DNA from: Candidatus Nomurabacteria bacterium
GTDB lineage: Bacteria; Patescibacteriota; Minisyncoccia; Phycocordibacterales; UBA9973
DNA: 64,000 nt
NCBI GenBank assembly: GCA_016699085.1
Contig: CP064958.1
Span: forward strand, 475,181-539,180
Direction: 5' to 3'
This document shows, one piece after another, positions 7,439 to 63,831 of the stretch (its first letter is position 1; every line of letters begins with the position of its first letter). The notes beneath the pieces are model-generated. The model was not told the origin of the DNA and did not search any database. It was given only the letters and a program-made list of their open reading frames with translations. The position numbers and the translations under genes are program-made.

Positions 7439-7560
7439 CAAAAACAAACCCAAGGAAGCTTGGGTTTTATTACTAAATACCAATACACACGGATACTTTG
7501 CACCGCTGCCTGTACAGCGCTCTAGTGTGGTATAATTCATTTGTAGATACTACAGCTATT

Positions 7561-8148
7561 ATGTACACACCTTTTGCTGAGAGAACTCATGAAGAAATGA
7601 AAGATGTGCTTATGTATCCTGAGGCAATAGGGCCTCAGGTTCATTACTATATGATTCGTGGTGGTACTGACAAGACAAATGTTACTATTTTGGAGAATGG
7701 TACCGTTGGTGGTGAATATATTAAAGCCTATGGTCACTACCATGCATATCCATTTATAGAGACCTATACCATAGTCAGCGGTGAGGGTATTTTACTCCTT
7801 CAAACGAGGAAAAAAGATGCACAGGGTAAATTCATCGATGATAGCATTGAATCAATTTCTGCGACATTCGTGGCGGCCGGCGATACGATTAAAATACCAG
7901 AGGACTGTGGGCACTTATTAGTAAATATCGGCTCACACTGGCTTGTTACTATCGATGATAGTCCAGTTAATCTTACAGAGACAAATGCCGTTAAAGCTCC
8001 GAGTCATGCTGATTATGAGCCAATGCGCAGGCTCCGTGGATTTGCTTATTACGTCATTGAAGAAAATGGCAAGCCAATTTTTGTTAAAAACCCAATGTAT
8101 ACAGAGGTACCGCCGATTACTATTTTTTCGAGAAAAGAAACTCATTAA
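7561..8148 (+). CDS. Cupin-type (archaeal-type) glucose-6-phosphate isomerase
   Basis: GHYHAYPFIETYTIVSGEGILLLQT and YVIEENGKPIFVKNPMY align closely with the Pyrococcus/Thermococcus cPGI signatures TKGHFHA..AEVY..GGMLLQT and IVIEENGEVKVVDNPRW. Confidence 0.75.
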   Translation: MYTPFAERTHEEMKDVLMYPEAIGPQVHYYMIRGGTDKTNVTILENGTVGGEYIKAYGHYHAYPFIETYTIVSGEGILLLQTRKKDAQGKFIDDSIESISATFVAAGDTIKIPEDCGHLLVNIGSHWLVTIDDSPVNLTETNAVKAPSHADYEPMRRLRGFAYYVIEENGKPIFVKNPMYTEVPPITIFSRKETH

Positions 8149-8151
8149 TCT

Positions 8152-9636: not shown

Positions 9637-9641
9637 CTACG

Positions 9642-11108: not shown

Positions 11109-11118
11109 ATATATACAT

Positions 11119-12790: not shown

Positions 12791-13540
12791 TTACCCTGTA
12801 AGTATGGACTCAATATAAGCTGCTGTTTCTTCTGGCCCACTGACGGTAACGATTGTTATGCCAAGAGGGATAACAACCGCATCATTACCACCTTCAAAAA
12901 GTGCATCCCCCACATACACAGCTTCTTTAAGGGGTATGTTGGTATATGCAAGAAGCTGCTTGATGCCGTAGGCTTTATCAATACCAGCTTTGGTGACATC
13001 AATCGACGTTGTGCCAGCAACGCTTATTGCATAGTTTGGCAGAAGCTTGGTTAATACTGTAATTATTTGTTTACGCTTGGTATGGTCGGGATCCCACGCT
13101 CTTTTTTGTTCCAGTGCTGCATCAATACCAAGTGCTGAGAAGGTAATTTGTGATCTGCGATCATCAAATAAATTACCTGCAGGGTTGTTTGATTTTCCAA
13201 TGCCGGTTTCTGCAAATGCTTGCTCAAATGCTGTAATAATTTTCTTTTTTTCTATCTCACTTAAAATTTCTTTGTATATTTCTTCCCAGGCCTCCTTATA
13301 GACATAGAAACTACCCCCATCGGTAGGAAGTAAATAAAGATTCGCTAGCTGTTCGTCTGTGCATGATACATGCGTGAGTAATTGTTTTTCAAACTGAACA
13401 AATGATGCACCAGAGGTAACAGCTACTTTCTTTTGTTGTAATAAGCTCGAGAGCAGATGGGCCATGGTTTGACTGATTGGAGTTTTGCTCTTAGAGAGTG
13501 TGTCGTCGAGGTCAAAAATAATAAGTTTTGGCAATGTCAT
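12791..13540 (-). CDS. HAD-superfamily hydrolase (sugar phosphatase-like)
   Basis: N-terminal IIFDLDDTL motif I, 249 aa. Confidence 0.6.
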   Translation of the reverse strand: MTLPKLIIFDLDDTLSKSKTPISQTMAHLLSSLLQQKKVAVTSGASFVQFEKQLLTHVSCTDEQLANLYLLPTDGGSFYVYKEAWEEIYKEILSEIEKKKIITAFEQAFAETGIGKSNNPAGNLFDDRRSQITFSALGIDAALEQKRAWDPDHTKRKQIITVLTKLLPNYAISVAGTTSIDVTKAGIDKAYGIKQLLAYTNIPLKEAVYVGDALFEGGNDAVVIPLGITIVTVSGPEETAAYIESILTG

Positions 13541-13662
13541 ACCACCTAGTATACACAGTTTTGTTGTTTTTTCATTGGCTATAGTAGTTTTCCACTAGTG
13601 TCAAAAGGCAATTAAGGATACAATAAAAGCAAGGAAAGTATTATTACTAATAGTTTTTTATT

Positions 13663-17597: not shown

Positions 17598-17648
17598 AAT
17601 TTAAAAGCACGGATTTCATATCCGTGCTTTTTTGCTATACTCAAATCT

Positions 17649-18401
17649 ATGTGTAGATTATTTGCTTTTAGTGGAAATACTGGTAGCCCGGAGTACCGAG
17701 ATGCGCTCATGGCTTTTGCTGTATTGGCAGATAAAGGCTGTGTGCCGTGCGGTATTGAGCCTGGGCACCAAGACGGCTGGGGTATACATAGCTCAAACAA
17801 AGCACATGAAGTATATATCCGCTCAGTCGAACCTATTGATGGAGACAGTGTTATTTCATCAACTGAATCTGTTTCAGGTGATGGTCAGGTAATCGCTCAT
17901 TTGCGCAAGGCAACTGTTGGAACAAAAGCTATTTGTAATACCCATCCTTTTCTACGTTCAGGTATATGTTTTTGCCATAATGGCTCGATACATGCTTTTG
18001 AAAGCACGGTTTTTACTAACGATAGGCACTTGCGTGAAGGCCATACGGATTCTGAAACTTTCTTTTTACGCATTCTTGATCGCATAGACGGGCAATTAGG
18101 TGATGGTAGCCTCTCTATGTTTGAAAAGGCGATTAAGGACGAAGTTATAGAAATTCAAAAGATTAGTGAATGGACATCATTGACATGTCTACTCAAAACT
18201 AAAGAGGGGATTATACTTCACTATTTATGGAATGAAAAAGATCCCGAACGTGAGACGCTCAAATTAGATGAGTACTATACTTTTTACAAAGGCACAAAAG
18301 ATGGTATGACGATTCTATGTTCTGAGACGCTAGATATACAGGGTTTTACTTGGGAAAAACTAGACAATGGGACAATACTTACATTGCCAAATAATCATTA
18401 A
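17649..18401 (+). CDS. Class II (Ntn-type) glutamine amidotransferase, YafJ/EgtC-like
   Basis: MCRLFAFSG with the nucleophilic Cys2 directly after the Met. 250 aa. Confidence 0.7.
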   Translation: MCRLFAFSGNTGSPEYRDALMAFAVLADKGCVPCGIEPGHQDGWGIHSSNKAHEVYIRSVEPIDGDSVISSTESVSGDGQVIAHLRKATVGTKAICNTHPFLRSGICFCHNGSIHAFESTVFTNDRHLREGHTDSETFFLRILDRIDGQLGDGSLSMFEKAIKDEVIEIQKISEWTSLTCLLKTKEGIILHYLWNEKDPERETLKLDEYYTFYKGTKDGMTILCSETLDIQGFTWEKLDNGTILTLPNNH

Positions 18402-20740: not shown

Positions 20741-20848
20741 TGGCTGCCTACTTAATTTCGAACAGCAAGAAAAATTATATCAAAATATACATTAATTCCA
20801 AAATAAATTTTAGAAATTTTGCCTTATTTTTTATGCTACACTCCTCGT

Positions 20849-21655
20849 ATGAAGATGAAAATATTTCAGAAAACTATTTTAGATTATTACAGGACTCATG
20901 GACGGAAGTTTCCTTGGCGTCAAACACACAATCCATATAAAATCTTGGTATCTGAAGTCATGTTGCAACAAACACAAGCAGATCGTGTCGTCCCGAAATT
21001 CAATGCCTTTATCAAAAAGTTCCGAACTGTGGAAGCCTTAGCACATGCATCACAAAAAGATGTCCTCGTGCTTTGGAGTGGTCTCGGGTATAATCGCCGC
21101 GCACTCAATCTACACAGAGCAGCGAAAGCAATAGTCTTAGATCATGCTGGTAAAGTGCCCAAAGCAAAAGAAGCTCTGGTTGCACTTCCAGCTATTGGTC
21201 CCTATACCGCAGGTGCGATACGAGCATTTGCTTTTAATGAGCCTGATAACTTCATCGAGACAAATATCCGCTCAGTATATATTCACTTTTTCTTTGCTGA
21301 TCGCAAAACAAAAATAACTGACAAGGAACTTCTCGCTGTAGGGGAGAATGTTATGTATTTGGAAAATCCGTGCGAATGGTACCAGGCACTCATGGACTAT
21401 GGTGCAATGCTCAAACGAGAAGGGAAAGGATATCTCAATAAAACCAGAAACTATACTAAACAATCAAAATTCCAAGGGTCTGATAGGAAAATCCGCGGAG
21501 CCATACTTAAACTCCTGCTTCAGAAATCTGAAACATTAGAGGGTCTCGTTACTCAAATAAATGAAAATAAAGCACGGATTACAAAAATCATCACTGGTCT
21601 TAGCAGAGATGGCTTCATTAAAATCAAATCGAACCGTTTCTTCATGAAGTCTTAA
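20849..21655 (+). CDS. mutY: MutY-like HhH-GPD adenine DNA glycosylase lacking the [4Fe-4S] cysteine motif, with a winged-helix-like C-terminus
   Basis: Aligns with the E. coli MutY N-terminus (YRTHGRKFPWRQTHNPYKILVSEVMLQQTQADRVVPKF, LWSGLGYNRRALNLHRAAK, LPAIGPYTAGAI). No Cys-x6-Cys-x2-Cys-x5-Cys segment. Confidence 0.8.
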   Translation: MKMKIFQKTILDYYRTHGRKFPWRQTHNPYKILVSEVMLQQTQADRVVPKFNAFIKKFRTVEALAHASQKDVLVLWSGLGYNRRALNLHRAAKAIVLDHAGKVPKAKEALVALPAIGPYTAGAIRAFAFNEPDNFIETNIRSVYIHFFFADRKTKITDKELLAVGENVMYLENPCEWYQALMDYGAMLKREGKGYLNKTRNYTKQSKFQGSDRKIRGAILKLLLQKSETLEGLVTQINENKARITKIITGLSRDGFIKIKSNRFFMKS

Positions 21656-23543: not shown

Positions 23544-23654
23544 TAATCAACCGTGCTTGATAGTATTATATCATTATATTTCAATAAAGTCAATAGTATA
23601 ATAACCTTGTGGATTAAGGTTATTTAGAGTGTTTTAACATGATATACTTTAGAT

Positions 23655-24290
23655 ATGTTAATCAAGAAATTAGGCCACTGCTGTCTCCACATTAAGCTTC
23701 CAAACCTTACTATTCTTACTGATCCTGGGAGTTATAGTACGCTGCAAAATGAAGTGAAGGGGATTGATCTTATACTCATTACTCATGAGCATGGGGATCA
23801 TTTTCATATTGAGTCGCTAAAGAAAGTGCTCATGAATAATCCTGATGCTAAAATTATTACTAACGTCTCAGTTGGTAAACTTCTCGATGTAGAAAATATA
23901 CCGTATAGCATTATTTCAGACGGGCAATCAACGACGATCGAAAATATTTTAATCGAAGGCTTTGGTACATTGCACGAAGAAATTTATGATGGCTGGGGTA
24001 GAGTAGAGAATACGGGCTACTTTATTGATAACAAACTCTTTTACCCAGGGGACGCGTTTACTGATCCTAAAAAACCAGTTGATATCCTAGCCTTGCCAGT
24101 TTCCGGACCATGGATGAAGATCCATGAAGCCATTGATTATGCACTACTACTAAAGCCACGAGTCGTATTTCCAGTCCATGACGCTATTTTGAAAAATCCT
24201 GGACTTGGGCATGCAGTTCCAAGTAAGTTTCTCCTAGAAAGTAATATCGAATTTGTTGTTATGAACGAAGACGACGAACACGAATTTTAA
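23655..24290 (+). CDS. MBL-fold metallo-hydrolase
   Basis: ILITHEHGDHF (HxHxDH) motif, 211 aa. Confidence 0.8.
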   Translation: MLIKKLGHCCLHIKLPNLTILTDPGSYSTLQNEVKGIDLILITHEHGDHFHIESLKKVLMNNPDAKIITNVSVGKLLDVENIPYSIISDGQSTTIENILIEGFGTLHEEIYDGWGRVENTGYFIDNKLFYPGDAFTDPKKPVDILALPVSGPWMKIHEAIDYALLLKPRVVFPVHDAILKNPGLGHAVPSKFLLESNIEFVVMNEDDEHEF

Positions 24291-26327: not shown

Positions 26328-27478
26328 ATGCTTGTATCTCGGAGCGAAAACCCATAGTAGAGTGATGACAGAACAATAATACCCAAGATAATATAAAGAG
26401 TTGAAAATGTACCGAATGAAAGTATGCATATGCCAGCAAGCGGCGCAATGATGTAGGCAAGCGGCGACATGTCTCGGAATATGCTGATATAGTTGCTCTC
26501 AGCATCATTTACTTTCTTGAAGAAATAGACCTCGGTCATAACTTCTGTTACCGCAGCGCCAACGCGTGTCATAAAGAGTACAATTGCCCATGTCCAAATG
26601 TTTGGTTCTATAAAAGCGAGAAGAAAGGTGCTTGCACCTAAGATAACTAAGCCTACCAATAAAAATGATCGTTCGCCAACTTTATCAGCATAGCGTCCGA
26701 GTGGATATTGGATAAACACAAACGGCAACAGCATGATCGTAAAAATAAAGCCGATCGTCGTCCAAGAAAAGCCTAAATAATTATGCATATACAGTGGTGT
26801 GTAGATAACCATTGTGGCGTAAAAGAATTGCAAGACAAAGTTGATAACGGTGATATTTCTCAAATCAGGATTCTTGCCAATATTGATAAGGGTTTGCAAA
26901 AATGAAAAGCGTTTATATGGCGCGTCGTGATAGTTGGTGAGCTTGGTAAGCGTCAAATAAAAGACTATGAAGATAAATGCCATACTGATGCTGTAGAGCA
27001 AATGGTACCCACCAGTAGTCAGTAGCATGCCGGCCAATAGTGGTGCAAATATCCACGCACAGTTGATAACAGTAAGATAAATGCCACGCATGACACCGGT
27101 ATTTTTATTTTTTGAGAAATGCTCAACAAAAATATCAAATGTAAAGACGATCAAATTGTTGCTGATAAGGTAAAACAAAATACCACCGACTTGTCCAGCT
27201 TGATTGCCGTGGGTCACCATGAATAGTGCAGTAAAGTTTACTATGAGCAATCCCAAGAGCAGTCGTCTATTGCCGAATGCTCGTAATAATGTAGGCATTT
27301 CTGACAGTGCGATCAGTGTCAGCATGGCACTGCCTGCGAAAACATAGCCTAGTATTTTTTCTGAAACAATTCCAGAGAGAAATGTTGAATTTATATATGA
27401 TGCGAGTGCAACCTGCAGGGCAAAGAAAAAGGTTGTCGTATAAATACTTCTGATCGTGAAGGAGTGTAAATGCTTCAT
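26324..27478 (-). CDS. MFS transporter
   Basis: 384 aa with about 12 predicted TM helices in a 6+6 layout. Confidence 0.7.
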   Translation of the reverse strand: MKHLHSFTIRSIYTTTFFFALQVALASYINSTFLSGIVSEKILGYVFAGSAMLTLIALSEMPTLLRAFGNRRLLLGLLIVNFTALFMVTHGNQAGQVGGILFYLISNNLIVFTFDIFVEHFSKNKNTGVMRGIYLTVINCAWIFAPLLAGMLLTTGGYHLLYSISMAFIFIVFYLTLTKLTNYHDAPYKRFSFLQTLINIGKNPDLRNITVINFVLQFFYATMVIYTPLYMHNYLGFSWTTIGFIFTIMLLPFVFIQYPLGRYADKVGERSFLLVGLVILGASTFLLAFIEPNIWTWAIVLFMTRVGAAVTEVMTEVYFFKKVNDAESNYISIFRDMSPLAYIIAPLAGICILSFGTFSTLYIILGIIVLSSLYYGFSLRDTSI

Positions 27479-27496
27479 GCAGTAAAGTATAACATT

Positions 27497-33677: not shown

Positions 33678-33716
33678 AACCGCCTTGGAATCCATAGATT
33701 TCAAGGCGGTTTCATA
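33678..33716 (+). terminator. Intrinsic terminator after groEL
   Basis: ccgccttg ... caaggcgg stem followed by tttcatat. Confidence 0.55.
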
Positions 33717-33719
33717 TGC

Positions 33720-33748
33720 TTGACATTGCATTTCGTCTCGTCTATACT
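33720..33748 (+). promoter_or_regulatory. Consensus sigma70-type promoter (TTGACA-17-TATACT), probably the rRNA promoter
   Basis: ttgaca at 33720..33725, 17-nt spacer, tatact at 33743..33748, about 215 nt upstream of the 16S 5' end. Confidence 0.7.
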
Positions 33749-33964
33749 ATCTCCACTCTTCAGTAAGAAGGGTATCTAACAGATTATGCCTATGAAAAAC
33801 TAAACTTTTTATTTTGTAAACAAGTAAAGTTCATATATGCGCCTGTTAGACGCTTTTTTCTTTGAAAATTTAAACATCAATGTAATGTGAATTAAAGTCA
33901 GTAAGTAAAGTAATCTGAGTCAAGAAAATGTATTTTTTCTTTTGTTTCGTTCTATTTTTTAAGT

Positions 33965-35608
33965 AGAGTTTGATCCTAGCTCAGGATGAACGCTGGCGGC
34001 GTGGATAAGGCATGCAAGTCGAACGAATTTTAATTGTTGAAGTTGAAATGAAGTAGCAATATGGAATTTTGATAGATATTTTTAAAATTAGTGGCGAACG
34101 AGGTAGTAACACGTGGGTACTTCCCCCTAAGTCGCGAATAATCCATCGAAAGGTGGACTAATACGCGATATACTTCAGAGTGAAAGATTTTTCGCTTAGG
34201 GAAAGGCCTGCGGGATATCAGCTAGTTGGTAGTGTAATAGACTACCAAGGCTATGACGTCTAGGGGAGCTGAGAGGCTGACCCCCACCGATGGGACTGAG
34301 ACACGGCCCATACACCTACGGGTGGCTGCAGTCAAGAACCTTCCACAATGGACGAAAGTCTGATGGAGCGACGCCGCGTGATTGATGAAGTCCTTCGGGA
34401 CGTAAAGATCTTTTATGAGGGAAGAAGTTTATTGACGGTACCTCATGAATAAGGGGCTCCTAATCTCGTGCCAGCAGGAGCGGTAATACGAGAGCCCCGA
34501 GCGTTATCCGGAATTATTGGGCGTAAAGGGTGCGTCGGTTGTTATATTAGCCTCACTTTAAATCTTCATGCTCAACATGAAGCATGGGCGGGGAACGGTA
34601 TGACTAGAGGTTGTGAGAGGTGTGCGGAACTCAAGGTGTAGGGGTGAAATCCGTTGATATCTTGGGGAACACCAAATGCGAAGGCAGCACACTGGCACAT
34701 ATCTGACACTCAAGCACGAAAGCGTGGGTAGCGAATGGGATTAGATACCCCAGTAGTCCACGCCCTAAACGATGATCTCTCGGTTTTCGGAGTATCGACC
34801 CTCTGAGAGCCTAAGCTAACGCGTTAAGAGATCCGCCTGGGAAATACGGCCGCAAGGCTAAAACTCAAAGGAATAGACGGGGACTCGCACAAGCAGTGGA
34901 TTATGTGGTTTAATTCGATGGTAAACGAAGAACCTCACCAGGGTTTGACACCTACGTGAAAGCTCTAAGAAACTAGAGCCCTCGCAAGACTAGTAGGCAG
35001 GTGTTGCATGGCCGTCGTCAGTTCGTGGTTTGAATTGTTCCCTTAAGTGGGGTAACGAACGCAACCCTCGTCGTGTGTTATATTTGTCACACGAGACCGC
35101 CCAGAACAAAGCGCGTGAATGCGCTTCTAGTAGAAAGTGTAAAGTTGAAAGTCAAAAGTGAATTCAGAAATGCATTTACTTTAAACTTTCTACATTCAAC
35201 TTTTGACTTGAAGTGTACATCGTACGTTTCGTTCTGGGAGGAAGGAGAGGATGACGCCAGGTCAGCATGACCCTTTGATATCCTGGGCTACACACATAAT
35301 ACAATGACGGCTACAACGCGTTGCGACGAGGTAACTCTGAGCTAATCGTTATAAAAGCCGCCTCAGTTCGGATTGAGGTCTGCAACTCGACCTCATGAAG
35401 TTGGAATTGCTAGTAATCGCAGGTCAGACATACTGCGGTGAATACGTTCTCGAGTCTTGTACTCACCGCCCGTCAAGTCAAGGGAGCTGGGAATACCCGA
35501 AATTTCTACATTAGTAGGACCTAAGGTAAGCTCAGTGACAGGGACTAAGTCGTAACAAGGCACGGGTAGCGGAAGCTGCTCGTGGAATAATTCAATTTGA
35601 AACCTTTC
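33965..35608 (+). rRNA. 16S ribosomal RNA with lineage-specific insertions (expanded V1 and a roughly 120-nt insert in the helix-40 loop). The 3' tail is atypical and lacks CCUCC.
   Basis: AGAGTTTGATCCTAGCTCAGGATGAACGCTGGCGGCGTG at the 5' end. Universal blocks GTGCCAGCAGGAGCGGTAATAC, GGATTAGATACCC, GCATGGCCGTCGTCAGTTCGTG, TACACACATAATACAATG, GTCGTAACAAGG. The 3' boundary is approximate. Confidence 0.9.
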
Positions 35609-35774
35609 ATTCGTAAGAATGAGATTAAGGTGTCGGTGTTCTGTGCCTCAATTGAGCACAGAATGGTCTATAAGCTTTATGACCTAAAAAAGTTTTGACA
35701 TAAGGGGAAAGACCCTAATAGGACGAAACAAAAGAGGACATACTAAGACTTTCACATACTAAGATGAATAAATA

Positions 35775-35812
35775 ACAGAAAAACCACAATAATTATTGTG
35801 GTTTTTCTGTGT
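35775..35812 (+). terminator. Strong hairpin terminator about 170 nt after the 16S 3' end
   Basis: acagaaaaaccacaataa / ttattgtggtttttctgt, an 18-bp perfect inverted repeat. No 23S gene follows. Confidence 0.6.
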
Positions 35813-35869
35813 CTGCATAAAATTGACATTATATTTATTTATGATATTATGAAGAAAAACTAAACGTAC

Positions 35870-36493
35870 ATGAAAAACAAACAAATAGTGCTTTCAATTT
35901 TTACTTTTGGCCTCATTTTATGTCTGTCAGCATGCGGTATCTTTAACAAAAAGGATGACCCACAGCCGAACATGCCAGTGGTAGAAACACCAGTTGATAT
36001 TTTTTCAAAATTTCATAGTACATGGAATTCCGAAGAAGAAAACTATCAAAGTACTTACCTGCAGCTTCCAGATGGTAACGACAGTTTGATACGGGTTATT
36101 GCTATTACAAATACCGACAATGGATTGGGTGAAAACTTGATTACTATCGATGATGATTTTTTGAATAAGATTGGTCAAGGTATATCAAAAGATTCGGCAT
36201 TTCCTAAGCCACTACCGGATCCGATCTTCGCCGATCTACAAAACCAATTTCAAAATGTGATGCAAACTTTTCTGGATGATTTTTCCAGCGAAAACATAAC
36301 TCGAGATAGTGCTCAGAAAAAGCAAATAGCTACGAGTATATCGCAGGCAAACCCAGCAATGGAGGCGCAGTTTGATGCCTGGATTGAGACAAATTTCAAG
36401 GTTGGTAATCCAAATCAGCCTCGGTATGAGCTCTATATAGGCAGCGATCCTGTTATTTTGCAGCAAATTGCCATATTGCAAAGAGGCAAATGA
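35870..36493 (+). CDS. Hypothetical lipoprotein
   Basis: Signal peptide with a lipobox-like LSACG. 207 aa. Confidence 0.5.
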   Translation: MKNKQIVLSIFTFGLILCLSACGIFNKKDDPQPNMPVVETPVDIFSKFHSTWNSEEENYQSTYLQLPDGNDSLIRVIAITNTDNGLGENLITIDDDFLNKIGQGISKDSAFPKPLPDPIFADLQNQFQNVMQTFLDDFSSENITRDSAQKKQIATSISQANPAMEAQFDAWIETNFKVGNPNQPRYELYIGSDPVILQQIAILQRGK

Positions 36494-39533: not shown

Positions 39534-39791
39534 TTATAGTGAGTTTGCTTGAATACCTTTTTCCCTTAATTCGTTTAGTAATGCAGTCAAACCTGGCTTA
39601 TTCGTACCACCTAATTTTAGAAGGTCACTGAAGGATAAATCCAGAAACTCCTGTTTAGTTTTTACATGAGGAATCAAATTTCGGGCATAGTTATTTGCTC
39701 GAATTCCTAAGTTTAGACTATCAAGGAAAGTTGTAAAATCTTCTTGGCTGCTTTCTTGGTCGCTATGTATGTTCATTTTTTCTGTCATGGT
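39534..39791 (-). CDS. Hypothetical protein with a C-terminal helix-hairpin-helix-like segment
   Basis: LSFSDLLKLGGTNKPGLTALLNELREKGI. Probable start MTEKMNIH. Confidence 0.35.
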   Translation of the reverse strand, partial: TMTEKMNIHSDQESSQEDFTTFLDSLNLGIRANNYARNLIPHVKTKQEFLDLSFSDLLKLGGTNKPGLTALLNELREKGIQANSL

Positions 39792-39846
39792 TTTAGTATA
39801 GTATGAGCTTAATTGAAATACTATTGCAGGAGAGTTTTGACAAATG

Positions 39847-41420: not shown

Positions 41421-41501
41421 TGTTATACTTATACTATGTTTATCAACAATTCTCCCTGGCTCAAACAGCTCGCTCGAACTCGACCAGTTGCGAAAGGAAA
41501 A

Positions 41502-43467: not shown

Positions 43468-43557
43468 TTTCTTCAAAGTTACAAAACAAAAATCCCCCTA
43501 TCCAGGGGTTTTTGTTTTGTAATGCTAAATTGCTACTTTTGTGCTATATTCTAAGCC

Positions 43558-46080
43558 ATGACATTCATAAAATCATTATTTGGTAACGCCGATAGCAGAT
43601 TTTCCAAAAGCGTTGCGCCGACACTCACAAAAATAAATGCTCTAGAAAAAGATATACAGAGCCTCTCTGATGCGGATTTCCCACGCAAGACCAATGAGTT
43701 CAAGGAACGTATTCAAAATGGCGAGACATTAGATCATGTGTTGCCTGAGGCGTTCGCCTTAGTACGTGAAGCTGCGAAGCGTTCGCTTGGTCAGCGACAC
43801 TACGATGTGCAGCTCGAAGGTGGCATTGCGCTTCACCAAGGCAAAATTGCCGAAATGAAAACTGGTGAAGGTAAAACACTTGTTGCAACACTTGCAACCT
43901 ATTTAAATGCCCTCGAAGGTCGCGGTGTGCACGTCGTCACTGTCAATGACTATCTCGCGCGCCGTGATGCACAGTGGATGGGGCAGATATATTCTTTTTT
44001 AGGCATGTCAGTTGGTATTATCAATAGCCAACAAGTATCATATCTCTACGACAGTACTCATACCGCAGATGACAAAGAGCATGATGAGACGAGCTCTTTT
44101 AAGGTCATGTATGAATTCCTAAAGCCAGCACCGCGCAAGGCTGCATACCTCGCTGATATTACGTATGGCACGAACAATGAGTTTGGATTTGATTATCTGC
44201 GCGACAATTTGGTTGTTTCTAAAGATCAGCTCACCCAGCGTGAACATTATTACGCAATAGTTGATGAAATCGATTCGATTTTGATTGATGAGGCACGAAC
44301 GCCGCTTATTATTTCTGCTCCTTCAGGAGATTCTGAAAAGCTCTATAGTACATTTGCCGATATTGCAACCAAGCTCTCCGTTGGAGAAGATTACACGGTT
44401 GATGAGAAGCACCATTCGATTGCACTAACTGATGCTGGTATTACGAAAGCAGAAAAATTGCTCGGCATAGATAATATTTATACAGAAAAAGGCATTAAAT
44501 ATGTCCATCACCTTGAGACTGCTGTTCGTGCGCGGGCATTGTATATCAAAGACAAGGAATATGTTGTCAAAGATGGTGAAGTTATTATCGTCGATCAATT
44601 TACTGGGCGATTGCAACCTGGGCGTAGGTATAGTGAAGGCATCCACCAAGCTGTGGAAGCTAAAGAGGGGGTTACGATCCAGCAAGAAACCAAAGCAGCT
44701 GCATCTATAACCTACCAAAATTACTTCCGTCTGTATAAAAAATTATCAGGCATGACTGGTACGGCTAAAACTTCAAGTGAAGAATTCTTCAAGGTGTACG
44801 GTCTTGAAGTCATGACTATTCCGACTCATCGGCCGAACAAGCGTATCGATACGCCGGACTTGGTGTATCAAAGTGAAATCGGTAAGTGGCAAGCAATTGC
44901 TAAAAAAGTTAAAGAGCTTAACAAAAAAGGGCAGCCAGTACTTATTGGTACGATTTCAATCGAGAAAAATGAAATGCTTTCAGCATATCTTGCCAAAGAA
45001 GGTGTGCCGCATACCATACTTAATGCCAAAAACCACGAACGTGAAGGTGAAATCATTTCTCAAGCAGGACGCAAAGGCTCTGTGGTGATCGCTACCAACA
45101 TGGCTGGTCGTGGGGTTGATATTGCACTCGGTGGTAAGCCTTCAACACCAGAAGAAAATGAAGAAGTAAAAAATCTCGGTGGACTTTTTGTCTTGGGTAC
45201 GGAACGTCATGAAGCTCGCCGTATTGATAATCAGCTGCGTGGCCGTTCAGGTCGTCAAGGTGACCCAGGTGAAACTGTTTTCTTTGTATCGCTCGAAGAT
45301 GATCTCATGCGAGTATTTGGCGCAGATAATATCAAGCGCATGATGGGCAAATTTGGTATTCCTGAAGACCAGCCAATACAAAATAAACTCATTTCTCGCG
45401 CACTTGAAAGCGCGCAGGCTAAGATCGAAGGATTTCACTTTGATGCCCGCAAGTATACGCTCGAATATGACAACGTTATGAACCATCAGCGTCATGTGAT
45501 TTATGATCGTCGCCGGGTATTACTGGTTGGTACTTTAGAAGAAATTAAAACCTATATTGATGGATTTATAGCTCAACACGTAGAGCTTGCGGCATTGGCC
45601 GAAGAGAAAAAAGTATTACTCTCTGAAGAGACGTATTATGAAACACTTCGCCGGATTATTCTCTATGTTACTGATGCGCTCTGGTCAGAGCATTTGGAAA
45701 CTATGGAATATACTCGCTCATCGGTAAATTTGCGTGCATATGGTCAGCGTGAACCGCTCATTGAGTATAAAAAAGAAGGCTTGAGGCTTTTCAAGGAACT
45801 CGAACAATCATTACTCGAGCAAGTTTATGAACTAACTAAAACGATTGATACTGGGACAACTGTTGCTCCAGAGAATCCTACACCAGCACCGCAATTTACT
45901 GTTACAAGCAATCCCGCACAAAATCTTGAGCCGCAAAATGTAGCGAGTAATGTTTCAGAAGGTGGATCAAAAATTGGCCGCAATGATTCTTGTCCATGCG
46001 GTAGTGGTAAAAAATGGAAAAAATGTGGCATGCTCAACACTACTGAGCATCAAAAATTACTGGCAGAAAAAAGTAAGTAA
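43558..46080 (+). CDS. secA: Preprotein translocase ATPase SecA with a C-terminal zinc-binding tail
   Basis: Canonical SecA motifs (MKTGEGKT, DEVDSILIDEARTPLIIS) and C-terminal CPCGSGKKWKKCG. Confidence 0.97.
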   Translation: MTFIKSLFGNADSRFSKSVAPTLTKINALEKDIQSLSDADFPRKTNEFKERIQNGETLDHVLPEAFALVREAAKRSLGQRHYDVQLEGGIALHQGKIAEMKTGEGKTLVATLATYLNALEGRGVHVVTVNDYLARRDAQWMGQIYSFLGMSVGIINSQQVSYLYDSTHTADDKEHDETSSFKVMYEFLKPAPRKAAYLADITYGTNNEFGFDYLRDNLVVSKDQLTQREHYYAIVDEIDSILIDEARTPLIISAPSGDSEKLYSTFADIATKLSVGEDYTVDEKHHSIALTDAGITKAEKLLGIDNIYTEKGIKYVHHLETAVRARALYIKDKEYVVKDGEVIIVDQFTGRLQPGRRYSEGIHQAVEAKEGVTIQQETKAAASITYQNYFRLYKKLSGMTGTAKTSSEEFFKVYGLEVMTIPTHRPNKRIDTPDLVYQSEIGKWQAIAKKVKELNKKGQPVLIGTISIEKNEMLSAYLAKEGVPHTILNAKNHEREGEIISQAGRKGSVVIATNMAGRGVDIALGGKPSTPEENEEVKNLGGLFVLGTERHEARRIDNQLRGRSGRQGDPGETVFFVSLEDDLMRVFGADNIKRMMGKFGIPEDQPIQNKLISRALESAQAKIEGFHFDARKYTLEYDNVMNHQRHVIYDRRRVLLVGTLEEIKTYIDGFIAQHVELAALAEEKKVLLSEETYYETLRRIILYVTDALWSEHLETMEYTRSSVNLRAYGQREPLIEYKKEGLRLFKELEQSLLEQVYELTKTIDTGTTVAPENPTPAPQFTVTSNPAQNLEPQNVASNVSEGGSKIGRNDSCPCGSGKKWKKCGMLNTTEHQKLLAEKSK

Positions 46081-51943: not shown

Positions 51944-52468
51944 TTAATTCGCGAACATGCTATAGATAAATTTTACGACTGGATCAATATCAGGTCCGTA
52001 GACAATAGCGGCGCCTAATGAGCCAGTGATCGTGATAAGTGCAAGGCCTATAATAGCAAGTGGTACAAGAAAAAATCTTTTCCAGAAATAATTTTTGATT
52101 TTTAGCACTCTATTCCAAATAGAAATGAGTCGAGGAGATTTGTCACCTAGTGGTGCATATCGTTCTATGAGGGTTATGAGGTACAGGAGTGCGATGAAGC
52201 CGTAGATATAGGATGCAGCATTAGCAAAGGTCGAATGTGTCTCGACGAGATTGTGAATACTTGAACTATTGCCAAGTGCTTCTTCTGCCATTTCGCCGGT
52301 TTTAAGTGTCACCAGTGAGGAGAGGCTACCAATGATGATAAATGTTGCTTTAATCGCAAATGCAGGCCGTGACCGCTGAAATCGTCTCCATGGCAGAATT
52401 TCGAGTAGGGTAAAGATGGTAAATAAGGCTATAGGGAAGTGCACAAAAAGGGGGTGTATGTTTGACAT
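51944..52468 (-). CDS. Hypothetical integral membrane protein
   Basis: 174 aa with four to five TM helices. Confidence 0.45.
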   Translation of the reverse strand: MSNIHPLFVHFPIALFTIFTLLEILPWRRFQRSRPAFAIKATFIIIGSLSSLVTLKTGEMAEEALGNSSSIHNLVETHSTFANAASYIYGFIALLYLITLIERYAPLGDKSPRLISIWNRVLKIKNYFWKRFFLVPLAIIGLALITITGSLGAAIVYGPDIDPVVKFIYSMFAN

Positions 52469-52592
52469 AGGTCAATTATACCATGTAAAGTAAAGGTTTT
52501 TAAGTTATATATGGCACTCTAAACAGTTGACTTTTTCATATATATGTGATATGATACAAGTCTAAGTTCTTCTCACAAAAAAATAATCTACT

Positions 52593-53370: not shown

Positions 53371-53973
53371 TTATTTTCTCCATTCTGTTATAGCACTTGC
53401 TTGTTGTTCAAATTGAGTTGCTTTTGCAAATTGTTGGATTTGGGAATTGGTAAAAAGTGTAGTGTGTGGTGATTCATCGAGTGCTGTACCGATATCCCAC
53501 AGGTCTTCGTCGCTTGTGACCCACGATGGATCAAGTTTTGATACATCAAAAGGTTTCGAGTAACTCCGCAGTGTTTTACTACCTGTTGCGTCTGTGTACT
53601 CGTGAAAGTACGACATGACGAGTTCACGGATAGTTGTGTACACCGCTTCGCGAAATCTGAGTACAGGATAGTTGGTTTTACTAATTGCTCCCCAGCATGT
53701 CCCAGCTTTAAAGAGTGCAACAACATGATCTACATCTTTGCGGCTAGCTTTAAGATCAAGTATGAGTGGTTTATGTCCATGGTAAGCAAGTGCAAGTGCG
53801 GCAAATAGTGCACCTTCAATACAGTGGGCTTTTTTATTTTTCATTACTAAACGAGGGGAATATAGTGTCTCATCAAAATTTTGTGGAATAGTATTGAGCC
53901 AGTTTTGAATTTTCTTGGGTGTATTGAGCTCTTTAAGAAGGGCAAGCTCAGTCTTGGTGAGGTCTTTAAACAT
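53371..53973 (-). CDS. Hypothetical protein, possibly a transglutaminase-like (Cys-His-Asp) fold
   Basis: KKAHCIEGALFAALAL (Cys), DHVVALF (His) and a downstream Asp spaced as in transglutaminase-like cores. Confidence 0.35.
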   Translation of the reverse strand: MFKDLTKTELALLKELNTPKKIQNWLNTIPQNFDETLYSPRLVMKNKKAHCIEGALFAALALAYHGHKPLILDLKASRKDVDHVVALFKAGTCWGAISKTNYPVLRFREAVYTTIRELVMSYFHEYTDATGSKTLRSYSKPFDVSKLDPSWVTSDEDLWDIGTALDESPHTTLFTNSQIQQFAKATQFEQQASAITEWRK

Positions 53974-53984
53974 AGTGCCAGTAT

Positions 53985-54428
53985 ATGCTAGTATGGTTTT
54001 TTATGGAATATATAAAAACTAAGTATCCGAATGTTAAAGTAAAACGATCCGGTCACGGCGGGCTCGGGCTTTTTGCCGAGGAGTTGATTGAGAAAAATAG
54101 GGACATCATAGAATACGTAGGGGAGATTATTACCGCCAAAGAAGCTGATGAAAGTAAGGGTAAATACTTGTTTGAACTCAATAGTAAGTTTACACTCGAT
54201 GGCAAATCACGCACTAATATTGCTCGCTACATTAATCATTCATGTCTGCCGAATGCCGAAGCTGATGTCATAAAGATGAAGATTATAATTTCAGCCAAGC
54301 GAACAATACTTTCTAGTGAAGAAATCACCTATGATTATGGCAAGGAATATTTTGATGAATTTATTAAGCCACATGGATGTAAGTGTGGTTTCTGCGATGG
54401 TCAGGGCAAGATACGTAGTAAAAAGTAG
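53985..54428 (+). CDS. SET-domain protein (lysine methyltransferase fold) with a post-SET Cys cluster
   Basis: RYINHSCLPNAEAD (NHSCxPN), EEITYDYG (ELxFDY) and CKCGFCDG. Confidence 0.8.
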   Translation: MLVWFFMEYIKTKYPNVKVKRSGHGGLGLFAEELIEKNRDIIEYVGEIITAKEADESKGKYLFELNSKFTLDGKSRTNIARYINHSCLPNAEADVIKMKIIISAKRTILSSEEITYDYGKEYFDEFIKPHGCKCGFCDGQGKIRSKK

Positions 54429-55655: not shown

Positions 55656-56402
55656 ATGAGTGCTACACTAAACCCTATGGTTATATTTATTGGCTTTCTG
55701 GCATTTTTGGCGACATACCTTGGCGGGGTATTTGCACTAAAGTTCAAGGATAAATTACATCTTATTTTAGGATTTAGTGCTGGGGCAGTAATAGCGGTTG
55801 CTTTTTTTGATCTGATACCTGAGGCTGTAGAACTGGGGGAGGCATTCTATAGTATCCCAACAATGCTATCGATAACTGCGGTTGGATTTTTTGGGTTTAT
55901 GATTCTTGACCGATTCGTTATATTTCACAGTCATGATGAACATGTACACGAACATGCTGGTTCAACAAAACGTGGACTCTTGGGCGCGGGTAGTCTTTCC
56001 ATTCACAGTTTTCTTGATGGACTTCTTGTCGGTCTCGCTTTTCAAGTTTCAAGTGCGGTGGGGCTCGTTGTTACGAGTGCTGTCTTGGTGCATGATTTCT
56101 CAGATGGTATTAATACAGTTAATCTTATTTTAAAAAACAATGGCAATGTCCAAGAAGCAAAAAAATGGCTCATGATAGATGCACTCGCACCTATTGCTGG
56201 AGTTGTAGCGACACTTTTCTTTACACTTCCGCAAAATATTTTAGGGATTATCTTGGCAGTATTCTCGGGTTTCTTTCTCTATATCGGAGCAAGTGATTTA
56301 TTGCCAGAAAGTCATCACAATCATCCAACAATCTGGACAACGATTGCAACACTTGTTGGTGCTGGGGTACTTTTCAGTGCAATACAAGTGGCAGGCATCT
56401 AA
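55656..56402 (+). CDS. ZIP-family metal (zinc) transporter, ZupT-like
   Basis: His-rich loop HSHDEHVHEHAGS. Conserved HSFLDGL and HDFSDG motifs in the TM helices. Confidence 0.8.
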   Translation: MSATLNPMVIFIGFLAFLATYLGGVFALKFKDKLHLILGFSAGAVIAVAFFDLIPEAVELGEAFYSIPTMLSITAVGFFGFMILDRFVIFHSHDEHVHEHAGSTKRGLLGAGSLSIHSFLDGLLVGLAFQVSSAVGLVVTSAVLVHDFSDGINTVNLILKNNGNVQEAKKWLMIDALAPIAGVVATLFFTLPQNILGIILAVFSGFFLYIGASDLLPESHHNHPTIWTTIATLVGAGVLFSAIQVAGI

Positions 56403-56454
56403 GTGTGAATTTAATAGCTAGAAAATCCTTAGGTAGCTATGCTATGCTCTTTGT

Positions 56455-57408
56455 ATGCAGGAATCAATTATTACAATTAAAAACCTTACGAAATCATTCA
56501 AAGATGTCAATGTACTAACAGGAATTGATCTAGAAGTCGCTTCTGGAACGATGCTGGCCCTTCTTGGGCCTAACGGTGCTGGTAAAACAACCATAGTACG
56601 GATTTTAAGTACGCTTCTCACCCCAGATTCAGGACAAGTACGTATTGCAGGATTTGATGTAGTTGCCGAACCTGACCAGGTTCGCTCCTCAATTGGTCTT
56701 ACGGGTCAGTATGCAGCTGTTGATGAATTTCTAAGTGGGGAAGAGAATTTGATTATGATGGGACGTCTCTACCATCTCTCAAAAGTAGATGCCAAGAAAC
56801 GCGCAGCAGAGTTACTGGCTGAATTTGATCTCGTTGAGGCCAAAGATCGCAGTGCCAAGACATATTCAGGCGGCATGCGACGACGACTTGACCTCGCATT
56901 GTCACTCATCGCGACACCTCCTATCCTTTTTCTTGATGAACCAACGACTGGACTTGATCCACGTAGTCGAATTAAAATTTGGGAAATTATCAAAAAGCTT
57001 TTAGCACAGGGGACAACGATACTTTTGACGACGCAATACCTAGAGGAAGCAGACAAACTGGCGGACAAGATTGCTGTGCTTGATCATGGCAAAATCATAG
57101 CCTACGGCACAGCAGATGAACTCAAGCAGAAGGCTGGCAAAGAGAGACTAGAGATAGTTATAGAAAAAGAAAGTAATTTCAAAGAAGCACTACGGACAGT
57201 TGAAGGTAGTGGTAAGCAGACTAATGAAGATGAACGTCGCATTAGTATTGAAACTGACGGAACAGTTGCGAGTGTTAAAAAAGTACTCGACATACTCGAG
57301 CAATCACATATAGAAGTTGAAACACTGTCATTACACAAACCAACGCTTGATGATGTGTTTTTGAAATTAACTGGTCATGCTGCCGATGTACCTCAAGCAG
57401 AAAAATAA
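56455..57408 (+). CDS. ABC transporter ATP-binding protein (ABC-2/DrrA-like exporter)
   Basis: Walker A GPNGAGKTT, signature YSGGMRRRL, Walker B LFLDEPTTGLD. Confidence 0.85.
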   Translation: MQESIITIKNLTKSFKDVNVLTGIDLEVASGTMLALLGPNGAGKTTIVRILSTLLTPDSGQVRIAGFDVVAEPDQVRSSIGLTGQYAAVDEFLSGEENLIMMGRLYHLSKVDAKKRAAELLAEFDLVEAKDRSAKTYSGGMRRRLDLALSLIATPPILFLDEPTTGLDPRSRIKIWEIIKKLLAQGTTILLTTQYLEEADKLADKIAVLDHGKIIAYGTADELKQKAGKERLEIVIEKESNFKEALRTVEGSGKQTNEDERRISIETDGTVASVKKVLDILEQSHIEVETLSLHKPTLDDVFLKLTGHAADVPQAEK

Positions 57409-59089: not shown

Positions 59090-59710
59090 TTATTGATTAA
59101 TAATAAGAGTTCGACGAATCTGATCAAATTCTTGGATTAGTGCATCTTTGTCAAATTCTGTGATCGTGCCTGGTTCATAATTTTCAAATGCACCGTAATG
59201 GATAAAGTATTTAACACCTATGCATGGATTTGTCCCTGGAAGAGCATAAACGGTTAGTTCGTAACGGTTGCCTGCAGCTGCGTCACTTATCGTACCAATA
59301 GAATATGTTATACCACTCTCTGTAGCTGTATATATAGTTGCGCCTTCGTACAGAAATAGTTTTGCAGTGCATTCGTTTGTTTGTGGAATTTGTTCAATGA
59401 TAATGGATGAATCTTGACTTAGGTTCGTACCACTTACGATACTTGTTGGGATCTTGAATTCAGTGCCAAAAATTTTATCACCTGTATCGATCGAATCACT
59501 AGAGTACGAAGCATTAACAGTGTACCCCTCAGGATATCGAATTGAGAATCCTTGTTCGCTGTTCTTGTATATTTGCGAAAGATTGCTATCCGTGATTTCT
59601 GTTAATTCATTATTATTTGCATAAGGCTTAGTAGGGACTTGAGTGGCAATCAAGACTGCAACGATACCAAGGCTTATAAGAATACCCAAAAGCATAATAT
59701 ATTTTTTCAT
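59090..59710 (-). CDS. Hypothetical secreted or membrane-anchored protein
   Basis: 206 aa with an N-terminal TM or signal. Confidence 0.45.
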   Translation of the reverse strand: MKKYIMLLGILISLGIVAVLIATQVPTKPYANNNELTEITDSNLSQIYKNSEQGFSIRYPEGYTVNASYSSDSIDTGDKIFGTEFKIPTSIVSGTNLSQDSSIIIEQIPQTNECTAKLFLYEGATIYTATESGITYSIGTISDAAAGNRYELTVYALPGTNPCIGVKYFIHYGAFENYEPGTITEFDKDALIQEFDQIRRTLIINQ

Positions 59711-59740
59711 ATACGTAGTATAAACAACTTCATCTATAAA

Positions 59741-59955: not shown

Positions 59956-60462
59956 TTATTTATTATCGAAAGCTTCTTGGAGTTTTGCTATGTCGATTTT
60001 CTTCATAGCAAGCATTGCCTGCATGGCCCTCCTATTAGCTTCACTGTCAGGACTCGTGAAAAATTGTTCCATTGAAGGGCAGACTTGCCAAGAGAACCCC
60101 CATTTGTCCTTGCACCAGCCACATTGACTCTCTTGTCCTTCTTTGGTAAACGCATTCCAATAGTGATCGATCTCTTCTTGAGTTTTACACTCAATCAAAA
60201 ATGACATTGATTCATTGGGTTTGAAAAGTGATCCACCATCGAGACACATAAATGTCTGTCCCTCGAGCGTAAATACTCCGGTGAGGACTTTGCCATCCAT
60301 GCCTGCCATCGGGCCTTCGGTAATGCCAGGAGGATAGTATTTAATCTTCACAACTTCGGACTCAGATTTTTTGCCAGGTGAAGTATTAAAGGTGGCAACG
60401 TAAAAGTCCATTGCTTCTTTTGCATCTTTGTCGAACCATAAAAACGGTGTGATTTTTTGCAT
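59956..60462 (-). CDS. VOC-superfamily protein of the PhnB / 3-demethylubiquinone-9 3-methyltransferase-domain type
   Basis: MQKITPFLWFDKDAKEAMDFYVATF N-terminus is typical of PF06983. Confidence 0.6.
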   Translation of the reverse strand: MQKITPFLWFDKDAKEAMDFYVATFNTSPGKKSESEVVKIKYYPPGITEGPMAGMDGKVLTGVFTLEGQTFMCLDGGSLFKPNESMSFLIECKTQEEIDHYWNAFTKEGQESQCGWCKDKWGFSWQVCPSMEQFFTSPDSEANRRAMQAMLAMKKIDIAKLQEAFDNK

Positions 60463-60548
60463 ATGCTCAGTATACCAAAAACTTGTACGACAATCGTAAA
60501 GTTGACTATAAAAAAATATAGTGTATAATTTTCTCAAATGTTTTTCAT

Positions 60549-63287: not shown

Positions 63288-63387
63288 TTCTCTATAGTAC
63301 CCCAGAATAATCTTTTGACAAACAAATATGAAGTAAGTGGACTCTCAACACTGCACAAGAAAGATTTAGGGAGTATACTTAGAATAT

Positions 63388-63831
63388 ATGAAATTACAAA
63401 AACCAGCATTTTTAATATTGCGATTGGGGATGGCTTTTATTTTTCTCTGGGCCTTTGCTGATAAATTATTTGGTCTTGGATTCGCCACGACCGCTGACCG
63501 GGCATGGCTTCATGGCGGTTCACCAACGACAGGATTTCTCATGAATGCCACCAAAGGTCCTTTTGCCGAGTTATTTCAATCCTTGGCAGGAGTTGGGATT
63601 GTCGACTGGCTGTTCATGCTTGGACTCCTGTTTGTCGGACTGACACTTGCATTAAACAAATTTGTGAAGTGGGGAAGTGTTGTCGGTTCAGTAATGCTCA
63701 TTTTGATGTACCTTTCAGTATTGCCTCCAGAGAACAATCCGCTCATTGACGATCATATTATCTATATTATTATCCTATATCTTCTTGCTACACGAGCGTC
63801 TTTAGAACAAAATGAAAAAAGCTTATCTTGA
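63388..63831 (+). CDS. DoxX-family membrane protein
   Basis: ILRLGMAFIFLWAFADKL N-terminus, four TM helices. Confidence 0.55.
   Translation: MKLQKPAFLILRLGMAFIFLWAFADKLFGLGFATTADRAWLHGGSPTTGFLMNATKGPFAELFQSLAGVGIVDWLFMLGLLFVGLTLALNKFVKWGSVVGSVMLILMYLSVLPPENNPLIDDHIIYIIILYLLATRASLEQNEKSLS

Follow-up and report, generated by a model that had tools for sequence, protein, structure and literature searches.

The 3' tail of the 16S rRNA was analyzed in a 64-kb window, the whole 64,000-nt stretch of contig CP064958.1 from a Candidatus Nomurabacteria bacterium, to which all positions refer. This tail lacks the CCUCC core of the anti-Shine-Dalgarno (anti-SD) sequence, and ribosomes that have lost this core cannot select start codons by pairing of the Shine-Dalgarno (SD) motif with the anti-SD. 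We consider it very probable that an ancestor of the lineage lost the core and that translation is initiated without SD:anti-SD pairing. An earlier note on this DNA had suggested such a system. It is the best reading of the data: the tail was free of CCUCC in all sampled relatives, SD motifs were not enriched upstream of genes, and the upstream regions showed no complementarity to the tail.

The 16S rRNA gene ends without an anti-SD core

A single small-subunit rRNA gene was detected in the window (33958-35597, forward strand), matching Rfam RF00177 over model positions 1-1533 with 1334.6 bits. The nearest 16S genes were those of Nomurabacteria metagenome-assembled genomes (MAGs; loci L092 and L111), at about 86% identity. 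In the Rfam alignment of the region 35200-36000, helix 45 was CACGGGUAGC-GGAA-GCUGCUCGUG (35561-35584), with 10 bp closing the conserved GGAA loop, and the helix-45 assignment of the earlier note was correct. The 13-nt tail that follows is GAAUAAUUCAAUU, where the aligned consensus tail is GAUcACCUCCUUu. CCTCC had no occurrence on the forward strand between 33900 and 36200, and the claim that the tail lacks CCUCC was thereby confirmed by alignment and string search alike. Only two CCTC strings were present within 35400-36000, at 35646 and 35911. Between helix 45 and the next gene, no displaced anti-SD was found. The weak candidate CCUUUC (35603-35608) was rejected because it lacks conservation and falls within the variable hairpin of the trailer.

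The 16S gene forms a transcription unit by itself: it has a promoter and a terminator of its own, and no 23S gene follows. Its promoter sits 3' of a terminator-like hairpin of groEL (about 33679-33710). The terminator at 35775-35810 is followed by the promoter of the next protein gene at 35823-35850, so there is no space for a displaced tail exon. An Rfam search found no 23S or 5S rRNA gene in the 64-kb window, and tRNA-Gln was its only tRNA.

Three side observations concern the same gene. The rRNA genes seem to be unlinked in the clade, with 23S similarity in 4 of the 120 relatives' 8-kb loci among the matches listed. The helix-6 region (34034-34081) has 48 nt against 8 in the Rfam model, an expansion typical of rRNAs from the candidate phyla radiation (CPR). 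The 515-primer region (34457-34489) reads GTGCCAGCAGGAGCGGTAATAC, with GA for CC and a compensating CTCC upstream, and standard 515F primers would therefore mismatch this organism.

The core is absent from all sampled relatives

One genome per GTDB species was scanned for the helix-45 string CAAGGCACGGGTAGCGGAAGCTGC, which gave at least 120 loci. Selection by an identical helix 45 means that these relatives represent the clade without an anti-SD, and not the sister lineages that use SD motifs. The taxonomic names and tail counts in this section hold among the matches listed. Every informative title named Patescibacteria, Parcubacteria or Paceibacterota. The groups included Nomura-, Zambryski-, Taylor-, Lloyd-, Kaiser-, Jorgensen-, Staskawicz-, Colwell- and Adlerbacteria and Ca. 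Microsyncoccus, together with the cultured Minisyncoccus archaeiphilus PMX.108. This helix-45 signature and the nearest 16S genes place the window organism in the Parcubacteria/Paceibacteria.

CCUCC was found at the tail position in 0 of 121 16S genes (the window and 120 relatives). No CCTCC occurred within 45 nt of helix 45 in 119 of the 121 tails; in the two exceptions it lay about 27 nt downstream, within the trailer hairpin. About three quarters of the tails were of the type GGA-WYAW-UUCAA-n-UGAA, as in the window. The remaining quarter or so, Minisyncoccus included, had a second type, GGAUCAWUUAUUUUU. The variant tail of the window is thus common to related species. In locus L082 (CAZLWF010000009.1), the region 3' of the 16S gene is syntenic with the window, the flanking genes share 91-97% identity and the tail is identical, which marks its source as a congener of the window organism. 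The comparison indicates that anti-SD loss is an inherited trait of a large clade and not the result of a sequencing error or of the decay of a pseudogene.

Some labels in this set look doubtful. A 2.6-kb contig binned as Gastranaerophilales (L046, JAQUYY010000304.1) has a helix 45 and tail of the Paceibacteria type, which suggests mis-binning. Many MAGs with CAY and CAZ accession prefixes titled 'uncultured Candidatus Saccharibacteria' also carry a 16S gene of the Paceibacteria type, and this label looks generic.

SD motifs are not enriched upstream of genes

Genes were called naively in all sets, as the longest open reading frames (ORFs) of at least 90 aa without overlap, chosen greedily. 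SD usage was expressed as the percentage of genes with GGAG, GAGG or AGGA at -18 to -4 and as the mean duplex free energy (dG) with ACCUCCUUA. Among the 62 genes of the window, 5% had an SD 4-mer compared with 6% in each of two control windows, and the mean dG was -0.77 kcal/mol compared with -0.87 kcal/mol inside coding sequences (CDS). The control, 41 genes in 50 kb of E. coli K-12, gave 37% compared with 5% and 2%, and a dG of -4.47 compared with -2.07. The 592 genes at the relatives' 16S loci showed 13.5% compared with 9.8% and 9.3%, with a dG of -2.20 compared with -2.03 and -2.12. In an independent set, the 257 genes at the relatives' prfB loci, the values were 8.9% compared with 10.5% and 10.5%.

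The statement of the earlier note that genes in the window show no SD motifs was borne out by these values, and the dG calculation it had proposed gave no excess of anti-SD pairing upstream of the 62 starts. The 5-mer SD core preceded none of these genes. Inspection upstream of groES, groEL, secA, pyrG and ftsE, the five genes that had been named, likewise revealed no GGAGG-like element. Upstream complementarity to the real tail was also not raised in the window (dG of -0.80 compared with -0.92 in the CDS control). A k-mer scan of positions -20 to -1 in 654 genes returned only words of the TGCTATAAT/TATACT type and nothing like UUGAAUUAUU. Neither SD enrichment nor tail complementarity was therefore seen upstream of ORFs in the window and its relatives, and an upstream mRNA motif complementary to the variant tail, as in an alternative anti-SD/SD pair, was not found.

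Promoter-like boxes adjoin many start codons

The sole motif enriched at -20 to -1 consisted of -10 promoter words (TATAAT, TATACT and TGCTATA). In the window, TATA[ACT]T with a gap of 6-7 nt to the start codon was observed 10 times against 0.77 expected (p = 1e-8). The wider form TAYRHT at the same gap was observed 44 times against 6.4 expected at the relatives' 16S loci (p = 2e-22) and 22 times against 2.7 at their prfB loci (p = 2e-13), and the enrichment was thus replicated in both sets of relatives. E. coli gave 1 against 0.3 expected (p = 0.28). When all TAYRHT-ATG pairs in the window were considered, an ORF of 80 codons or more was opened by 10 of the 13 with a gap of N6 and by 8 of the 25 with N7; for most other gaps the number was 0 to 5, and for gap 11 it was 6. 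A TGn extension was carried by 56% of the start-adjacent boxes compared with 7% of other TAYRHT hexamers.

The box was present at 15 of 44 candidate first genes but at only 1 of 17 operon-internal genes (Fisher p = 0.027). Operon-internal genes were defined as those at most 25 nt from an upstream gene on the same strand, and their spacing from the preceding stop ranged from -65 to +20 nt. Leaderless-type starts also showed a preference for AUG: all 13 box-bearing genes of the window began with ATG, as did 48 of 55 box-bearing genes in relatives compared with 360 of 592 overall.

A -10 hexamer ending 6-7 nt before an ATG puts the predicted transcription start on or next to the A, and a box at this distance is the standard genomic signature of leaderless mRNAs. 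The data point to such mRNAs for many first genes, a positive mechanism that the earlier note had not put forward. In a literature search that was not exhaustive, we found no description of leaderless translation in Patescibacteria or the CPR.

The boxes also bear on gene starts. Four naive starts (20819, 39884, 55602 and 60537, three of them TTG) are probably wrong, and an ATG 30-96 nt downstream fits better in each case. The secA start next to its box is backed by the SecA_DEAD profile, which begins at residue 5.

Initiation in this lineage can be pictured as follows. The CCUCC core would have been lost in an ancestor of the Parcubacteria lineage (Paceibacteria/Minisyncoccia, near 'Nomurabacteria'). 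Many first genes would have an extended -10 promoter 6-7 nt ahead of the ATG, and their mRNAs would begin at the start codon or at most one base from it. Leaderless mRNAs are bound directly through the 5'-terminal AUG by 70S ribosomes or by 30S-IF2-fMet-tRNA. Operon-internal genes would presumably be started by ribosomes that have just terminated, and other leadered genes, such as groES and groEL, presumably through A/U-rich, weakly structured start regions.

prfB encodes a short RF2 without a programmed frameshift

The earlier note had described prfB as one uninterrupted ORF, and this was confirmed; that the encoded RF2 is shortened was not remarked on there. The best PDB matches of its product were RF2 proteins, and the SPF and GGQ motifs are present. 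The gene starts 36 nt past the alr stop codon (553-555). An ORF0 was not found: its frame would be interrupted by TAG at 576-578, and no CTTTGA is present. A -10-like TATATT (579-584) lies 7 nt before the ATG. Aligned with a 366-aa RF2, residues 6-48 correspond to residues 29-68 and residues 47-288 to residues 120-359. The protein begins near residue 24-29 of canonical RF2 and lacks about 23 N-terminal residues, which are normally encoded by ORF0, as well as about 50 residues of domain 1.

A metagenome scan recovered 80 homologous prfB loci with 50-62% identity. In the 76 loci with complete 5' ends, the longest ORF was of the same short form (median 296 aa). The inspection of relatives that the earlier note had proposed revealed a credible CUU UGA frameshift site in none of these 76. 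In-frame CTTTGA strings in L153 and L163 were judged to be chance occurrences, as the ORF0 translations are not RF2-like and an SD-like stimulator is lacking. The layout of the programmed frameshift, in which a short ORF0 closes with CUU UGA, an SD-like element precedes this site by 3 nt and ORF1 lies in the +1 frame, was not found. The alignments indicate that the frameshift cassette and the N-terminal segment it encoded were deleted in the lineage, as expected once the stimulating anti-SD was gone.

Absence of the prfB frameshift is common among bacteria generally, and Baranov et al. 2002 reportedly put it at about 30% of them. The observation of the earlier note stood, but taken alone the missing frameshift is weak supporting evidence for SD-independence. 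What makes it fit here is that 76 of 76 relatives have lost the entire ORF0 segment.

The replacement tail appears conserved

The tail that replaces the anti-SD appears to be conserved and not random, with the consensus GGA-WYAW-UUCAA among the matches listed. A candidate mini-hairpin, UUCA-AUU-UGAA, spans the tail and the first trailer bases; its 4-bp arms are TTCA (35591-94) and TGAA (35598-601) around an ATT loop. Variant arms in relatives stay paired (UUCC/GGAA, AUCC/GGA and CUCA/UGAG). Arm pairing averaged 3.18 of 4 positions compared with 2.54 +/- 0.14 when arms were swapped among loci, and 0 of 2000 swaps reached the observed value. The folding energy is about 0 kcal/mol, and despite the compensatory-looking changes we therefore do not claim a stable helix.

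The leader (33756-33971) and trailer (35588-35765) of the 16S gene can form a duplex of -56 kcal/mol and are complementary over about 200 nt. A leader motif GUUYCG, often GUUCCG, recurs in many relatives 10-25 nt before the 16S 5' end; this motif, GUUUCG in the window, is complementary to GAAAC/CGGAAC in the tails. Cognate tail-leader duplexes at 35 loci were not significantly stronger than non-cognate ones (-5.67 compared with -5.40; 991 of 5000 permutations), probably because both partners are conserved. Pairing of tail and leader is a suggestion only. Further into the trailer, relatives carry a hairpin of variable sequence at the place of the window's UUUCAUUC-GUAA-GAAUGAGA. MAFFT and RNAalifold applied to 77 trailers recovered only helix 45, as the variable hairpin does not align.

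These features suggest, as the most economical account, that pre-rRNA processing or assembly and not mRNA binding constrains the tail. Paceibacteria mostly lack Era (PMC12641178), which recognises GAUCACCUCC adjoining helix 45 (PMC10582724); loss of Era may have lifted one constraint on the tail. It would go further to regard the tail as a selected structured element and not decayed filler, either as a terminal hairpin ('helix 46') or as a toggle with the leader GUUYCG, and we think this rather unlikely. If true, the 3' end would have given up mRNA docking for a new task, in ribosome assembly or in the handling of 5'-terminal AUGs of leaderless mRNAs, and a remodelled 30S platform would be common to a class-sized bacterial lineage. 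More speculatively, the few correctly spaced AGGAGG motifs that persist in relatives would in that case have a reader different from the 16S tail. An incomplete literature search found no description of the conserved replacement tail, the shortened RF2 or leaderless-type promoters in this clade.

Points of doubt and alternative explanations

Several points weigh against initiation without SD:anti-SD pairing. The position assigned to the tail is set solely by homology to the Rfam model, and as 64 kb of this genome were covered, it may also hold a second rrs that ends in a canonical tail or encode a 3' fragment separately. The leaderless reading is drawn from promoter-like DNA motifs, and about two thirds of the candidate first genes are without the -10 box. 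Naive longest-ORF starts dilute any upstream signal, although the E. coli control still detects SD usage. In addition, a small GGAGG/AGGAG peak at the correct spacing, made up of about 2-4% of genes, was seen in relatives that lack CCUCC. It was significant in two independent locus sets, L004-L123 (16S loci) and L126-L205, and was absent from the window. Among the 592 genes of the first set, GGAGG was counted 15 times at 4-8 nt ahead of the start codon, where the background is about 0.45 per position. The prfB-locus set gave 6 compared with 1.3 expected (p = 0.002). Genes with AGGAGG or GGAGG 4-9 nt before the start include L042:6906-7844, L087:1081-2715, L109:6215-6694 and L114:1306-1584. Further examples are aaaaaggaggatattATG before Minisyncoccus purC and two adjacent genes in L087. 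A Pfam search of 20 such genes found no common theme, and most had no Pfam family. Recent horizontal acquisition is the simplest idea for these residual genes and is a possibility.

A true anti-SD might still be located elsewhere, past an intervening sequence, in a second rRNA operon or on a separate 3' fragment. CPR rRNA genes often carry insertions, as near helix 6 here, the relatives' 16S spans reach 3.4 kb, and one 64-kb window was seen. Against such an artefact, the search of 33900-36200 gave no CCTCC, the unit is closed by its terminator before another gene's promoter, and the CCUCC-less tail abuts helix 45 in 119 of 121 sequences from independent assemblies among the matches listed. The mRNAs also lack SD motifs for such a tail, and published surveys report the same absence. 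We therefore consider an overlooked anti-SD very unlikely. A 16S copy that is degenerate and non-functional, or an assembly chimera, would make the tail uninformative. rRNA regions do assemble poorly in metagenomes, and a Logan contig with the same groEL breaks at the 16S gene. Yet the gene matches the Rfam model at full length and with a high score, its helix 45 and decoding region are intact, it is served by a strong promoter and a terminator of its own, and the complementarity of its leader and trailer resembles that of a processed precursor. As the tail and flanks are common to L082 and the tail type occurs in more than 80 other species, this explanation is hardly credible.

Two further alternatives accept the tail and concern how mRNAs are recognized. 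In some Flavobacteriia, an altered anti-SD matches the rpsU leader, and the new tail AAUAAUUCAAUU could similarly be an altered anti-SD for a new mRNA motif. Its conservation across the clade does imply some constraint. However, pairing of upstream regions with the real tail was no stronger than inside CDS, the scan of 654 genes gave just -10 words, and Amin et al. found no SD matched to the variant anti-SD in 128 organisms without CCUCCU (PMC6107228). A co-evolved pair thus has a very low probability. The TATAAT-like element could also be something other than a promoter, namely an A/U-rich signal, such as an S1 site, to which ribosomes bind on leadered mRNAs. Bacteroidetes and some other SD-poor bacteria do have AT-rich upstream signals that are not SD motifs, and the promoter reading here comes from DNA sequence; an A-rich pattern is also mentioned in PMC3457768. 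The motif, however, fits the sigma-70 -10 consensus and is more than an AT-rich stretch, the TGn extension far exceeds its background, and the spacing is sharply the 6-7 nt of a -10-to-start distance. The box also marks candidate first genes and not operon-internal ones, and the 16S promoter itself uses TATACT. A ribosome-binding signal of this kind therefore seems quite unlikely, and initiation without SD:anti-SD pairing, with leaderless mRNAs for many first genes, is preferred.

Comparison with known systems

The earlier note had presented the finding as possibly new. It is an already published trait of Parcubacteria subgroups. Tsurumaki et al. 2022 (RNA 28:1041) give CCTCCT in just 48% of Parcubacteria, its absence overlapping the uL1-lacking group (PMC9297842). 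A 2024 PLoS One paper lists Ca. Campbellbacteria and Ca. Wolfebacteria as 'SD-scarce organisms lacking CCUCC' (PMC10783764). The window organism belongs to the same neighbourhood, with a tail without CCUCC(U) and scarce SD motifs, and does not differ in kind from the published subgroup. The passages of these papers that were consulted contain no description of the replacement tail, the leaderless-type spacing or the shortened RF2. On the rplA (uL1) question, a Pfam scan of the 40 largest ORFs of the window found no ribosomal-protein gene there. The finding is a correct rediscovery in a new genome, to which the leaderless signature and the conserved tail are modest additions.

The category of 'non-anti-SD genomes', category iv of PMC10783764, goes back to Lim 2012 and Amin 2018, who described it in endosymbionts, hemoplasmas and some Flavobacteriia, where SD motifs are generally lacking too (PMC3457768, PMC6107228). 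Carsonella, Sulcia, Blattabacterium, Hodgkinia, hemotropic mycoplasmas and Chryseobacterium/Riemerella likewise have A/U-rich sequence for CCUCC, no SD enrichment and a clade-shared state. In most of these groups the tail decays differently among close relatives (TCTCT compared with TTTCT in Ca. Sulcia; PMC3457768). Here, by contrast, one consensus GGAWYAWUUCAA is kept over dozens of species-level lineages among the matches listed, and the bearers are environmental CPR bacteria and not insect endosymbionts.

Bacteroidetes, which have A-rich start contexts, use CCUCC for rpsU regulation and prfB frameshifting. Their genes likewise lack SD motifs, and a mild A enrichment at -14 to -3 was seen here at the relatives' 16S loci. 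Bacteroidetes keep a sequestered CCUCC, whereas here CCUCC and the prfB frameshift are both gone. Compared with the programmed +1 prfB system, an RF2 is present here too, but without ORF0, slippery/stop site or SD-like stimulator. Actinobacteria, Deinococcus-Thermus and haloarchaea, all rich in leaderless mRNAs, and mammalian mitochondria likewise have a -10 element at a fixed short distance and a strong AUG preference. Actinobacteria and Deinococcus keep the anti-SD and SD motifs on leadered genes, whereas here leaderless mRNAs are predicted from sequence alone. The small-subunit rRNA of mammalian mitochondria is without an anti-SD (PMC10582724).

Features of the window

The positions of all features are collected in Table 1.

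Table 1. Features of the 64-kb window; for boxes, the gap from hexamer to ATG is given and lower-case letters show the TGn extension.
Feature	Position	Strand	Remark
prfB, short RF2 of 293 aa	592..1473	+	single ORF, no programmed frameshift; PCRF + RF-1 domains
HAD hydrolase start: TATACT, 7 nt, ATG	13538..13553	-	leaderless-type
GATase gene start: tgcTATACT, 7 nt, ATG	17636..17651	+	leaderless-type
Gene start: tgcTACACT, 6 nt, ATG at 20849	20837..20851	+	leaderless-type; proposed in place of naive TTG 20819
Metallo-beta-lactamase-fold gene (Pfam) start: tgaTATACT, 6 nt, ATG	23643..23657	+	leaderless-type
MFS transporter start: tgtTATACT, 7 nt, ATG	27476..27491	-	leaderless-type
16S-unit promoter, TTGACA-17 nt-TATACT	33720..33748	+	11/12 consensus matches
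16S leader with GUUUCG at 33944-33949	33755..33957	+	complementary to trailer along its length
16S rRNA gene, Parcubacteria/Paceibacteria type	33958..35597	+	RF00177 full-length match
Helix 45, 10 bp + GGAA loop	35561..35584	+	identical sequence in at least 120 GTDB species representatives
3' tail GAAUAAUUCAAUU in place of GAUCACCUCCUUU	35585..35597	+	AUUCA for CCUCC core
Candidate mini-hairpin UUCA-AUU-UGAA	35591..35601	+	marginal
Trailer stem-loop UUUCAUUC-GUAA-GAAUGAGA	35605..35624	+	variable-sequence hairpin at same place in relatives
Trailer motif GUCGGU	35632..35637	+	conserved, mostly as GUCGAU in relatives; 50-75 nt past helix 45
16-bp hairpin flanked by T-runs on either side	35775..35810	.	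ends 16S unit; terminator scan
Gene start: TATACT, 6 nt, ATG at 39788	39786..39800	-	leaderless-type; proposed in place of naive start 39884
FAD oxidoreductase start: TATACT, 6 nt, ATG	41424..41438	+	leaderless-type
secA start, leaderless-type: extended -10 tgcTATATT, 7 nt, ATG at 43558	43545..43560	+	
Gene start: tggTATAAT, 6 nt, ATG	52466..52480	-	leaderless-type
Gene start: TATACT, 6 nt, ATG	53971..53985	-	leaderless-type
Gene start: tgcTACACT, 7 nt, ATG at 55677	55664..55679	+	leaderless-type; proposed in place of naive TTG 55602
Gene start: tgcTATGCT, 6 nt, ATG	56443..56457	+	leaderless-type
Gene start: TATACT, 6 nt, ATG	59708..59722	-	leaderless-type
Gene start: tggTATACT, 6 nt, ATG at 60462	60460..60474	-	leaderless-type; proposed in place of naive TTG (60537)
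Gene start: TATACT, 8 nt, ATG	63374..63390	+	near-leaderless

Two other loci were noted. On the reverse strand, 46139-48322 encodes a 727-aa protein with sulfatase, fibronectin-III and Por_Secre_tail (type IX secretion sorting) domains; the last is unexpected in a CPR genome because this sorting domain is typical of Bacteroidota. A glycogen cluster at 7498-12789 comprises a cupin-type glucose-6-phosphate isomerase, a starch/glycogen synthase, a GH57 enzyme and a glycogen phosphorylase-like gene.

Significance

Because the basic fact is already in the literature, the value of this analysis is confirmatory, with the leaderless and conserved-tail leads in addition. The window offers a clean sequence-level case of a free-standing bacterial lineage, not an insect endosymbiont, without SD:anti-SD pairing. 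The expected knock-on changes appear together in it: no SD motifs, a deleted prfB cassette and predicted promoters abutting start codons. Gene callers that use a ribosome-binding-site model will mis-place starts in such genomes, and four naive starts of the window were better fitted by the -10 spacing. Heterologous expression of CPR genes, or expression in CPR hosts such as the cultured Minisyncoccus, should not assume SD initiation.

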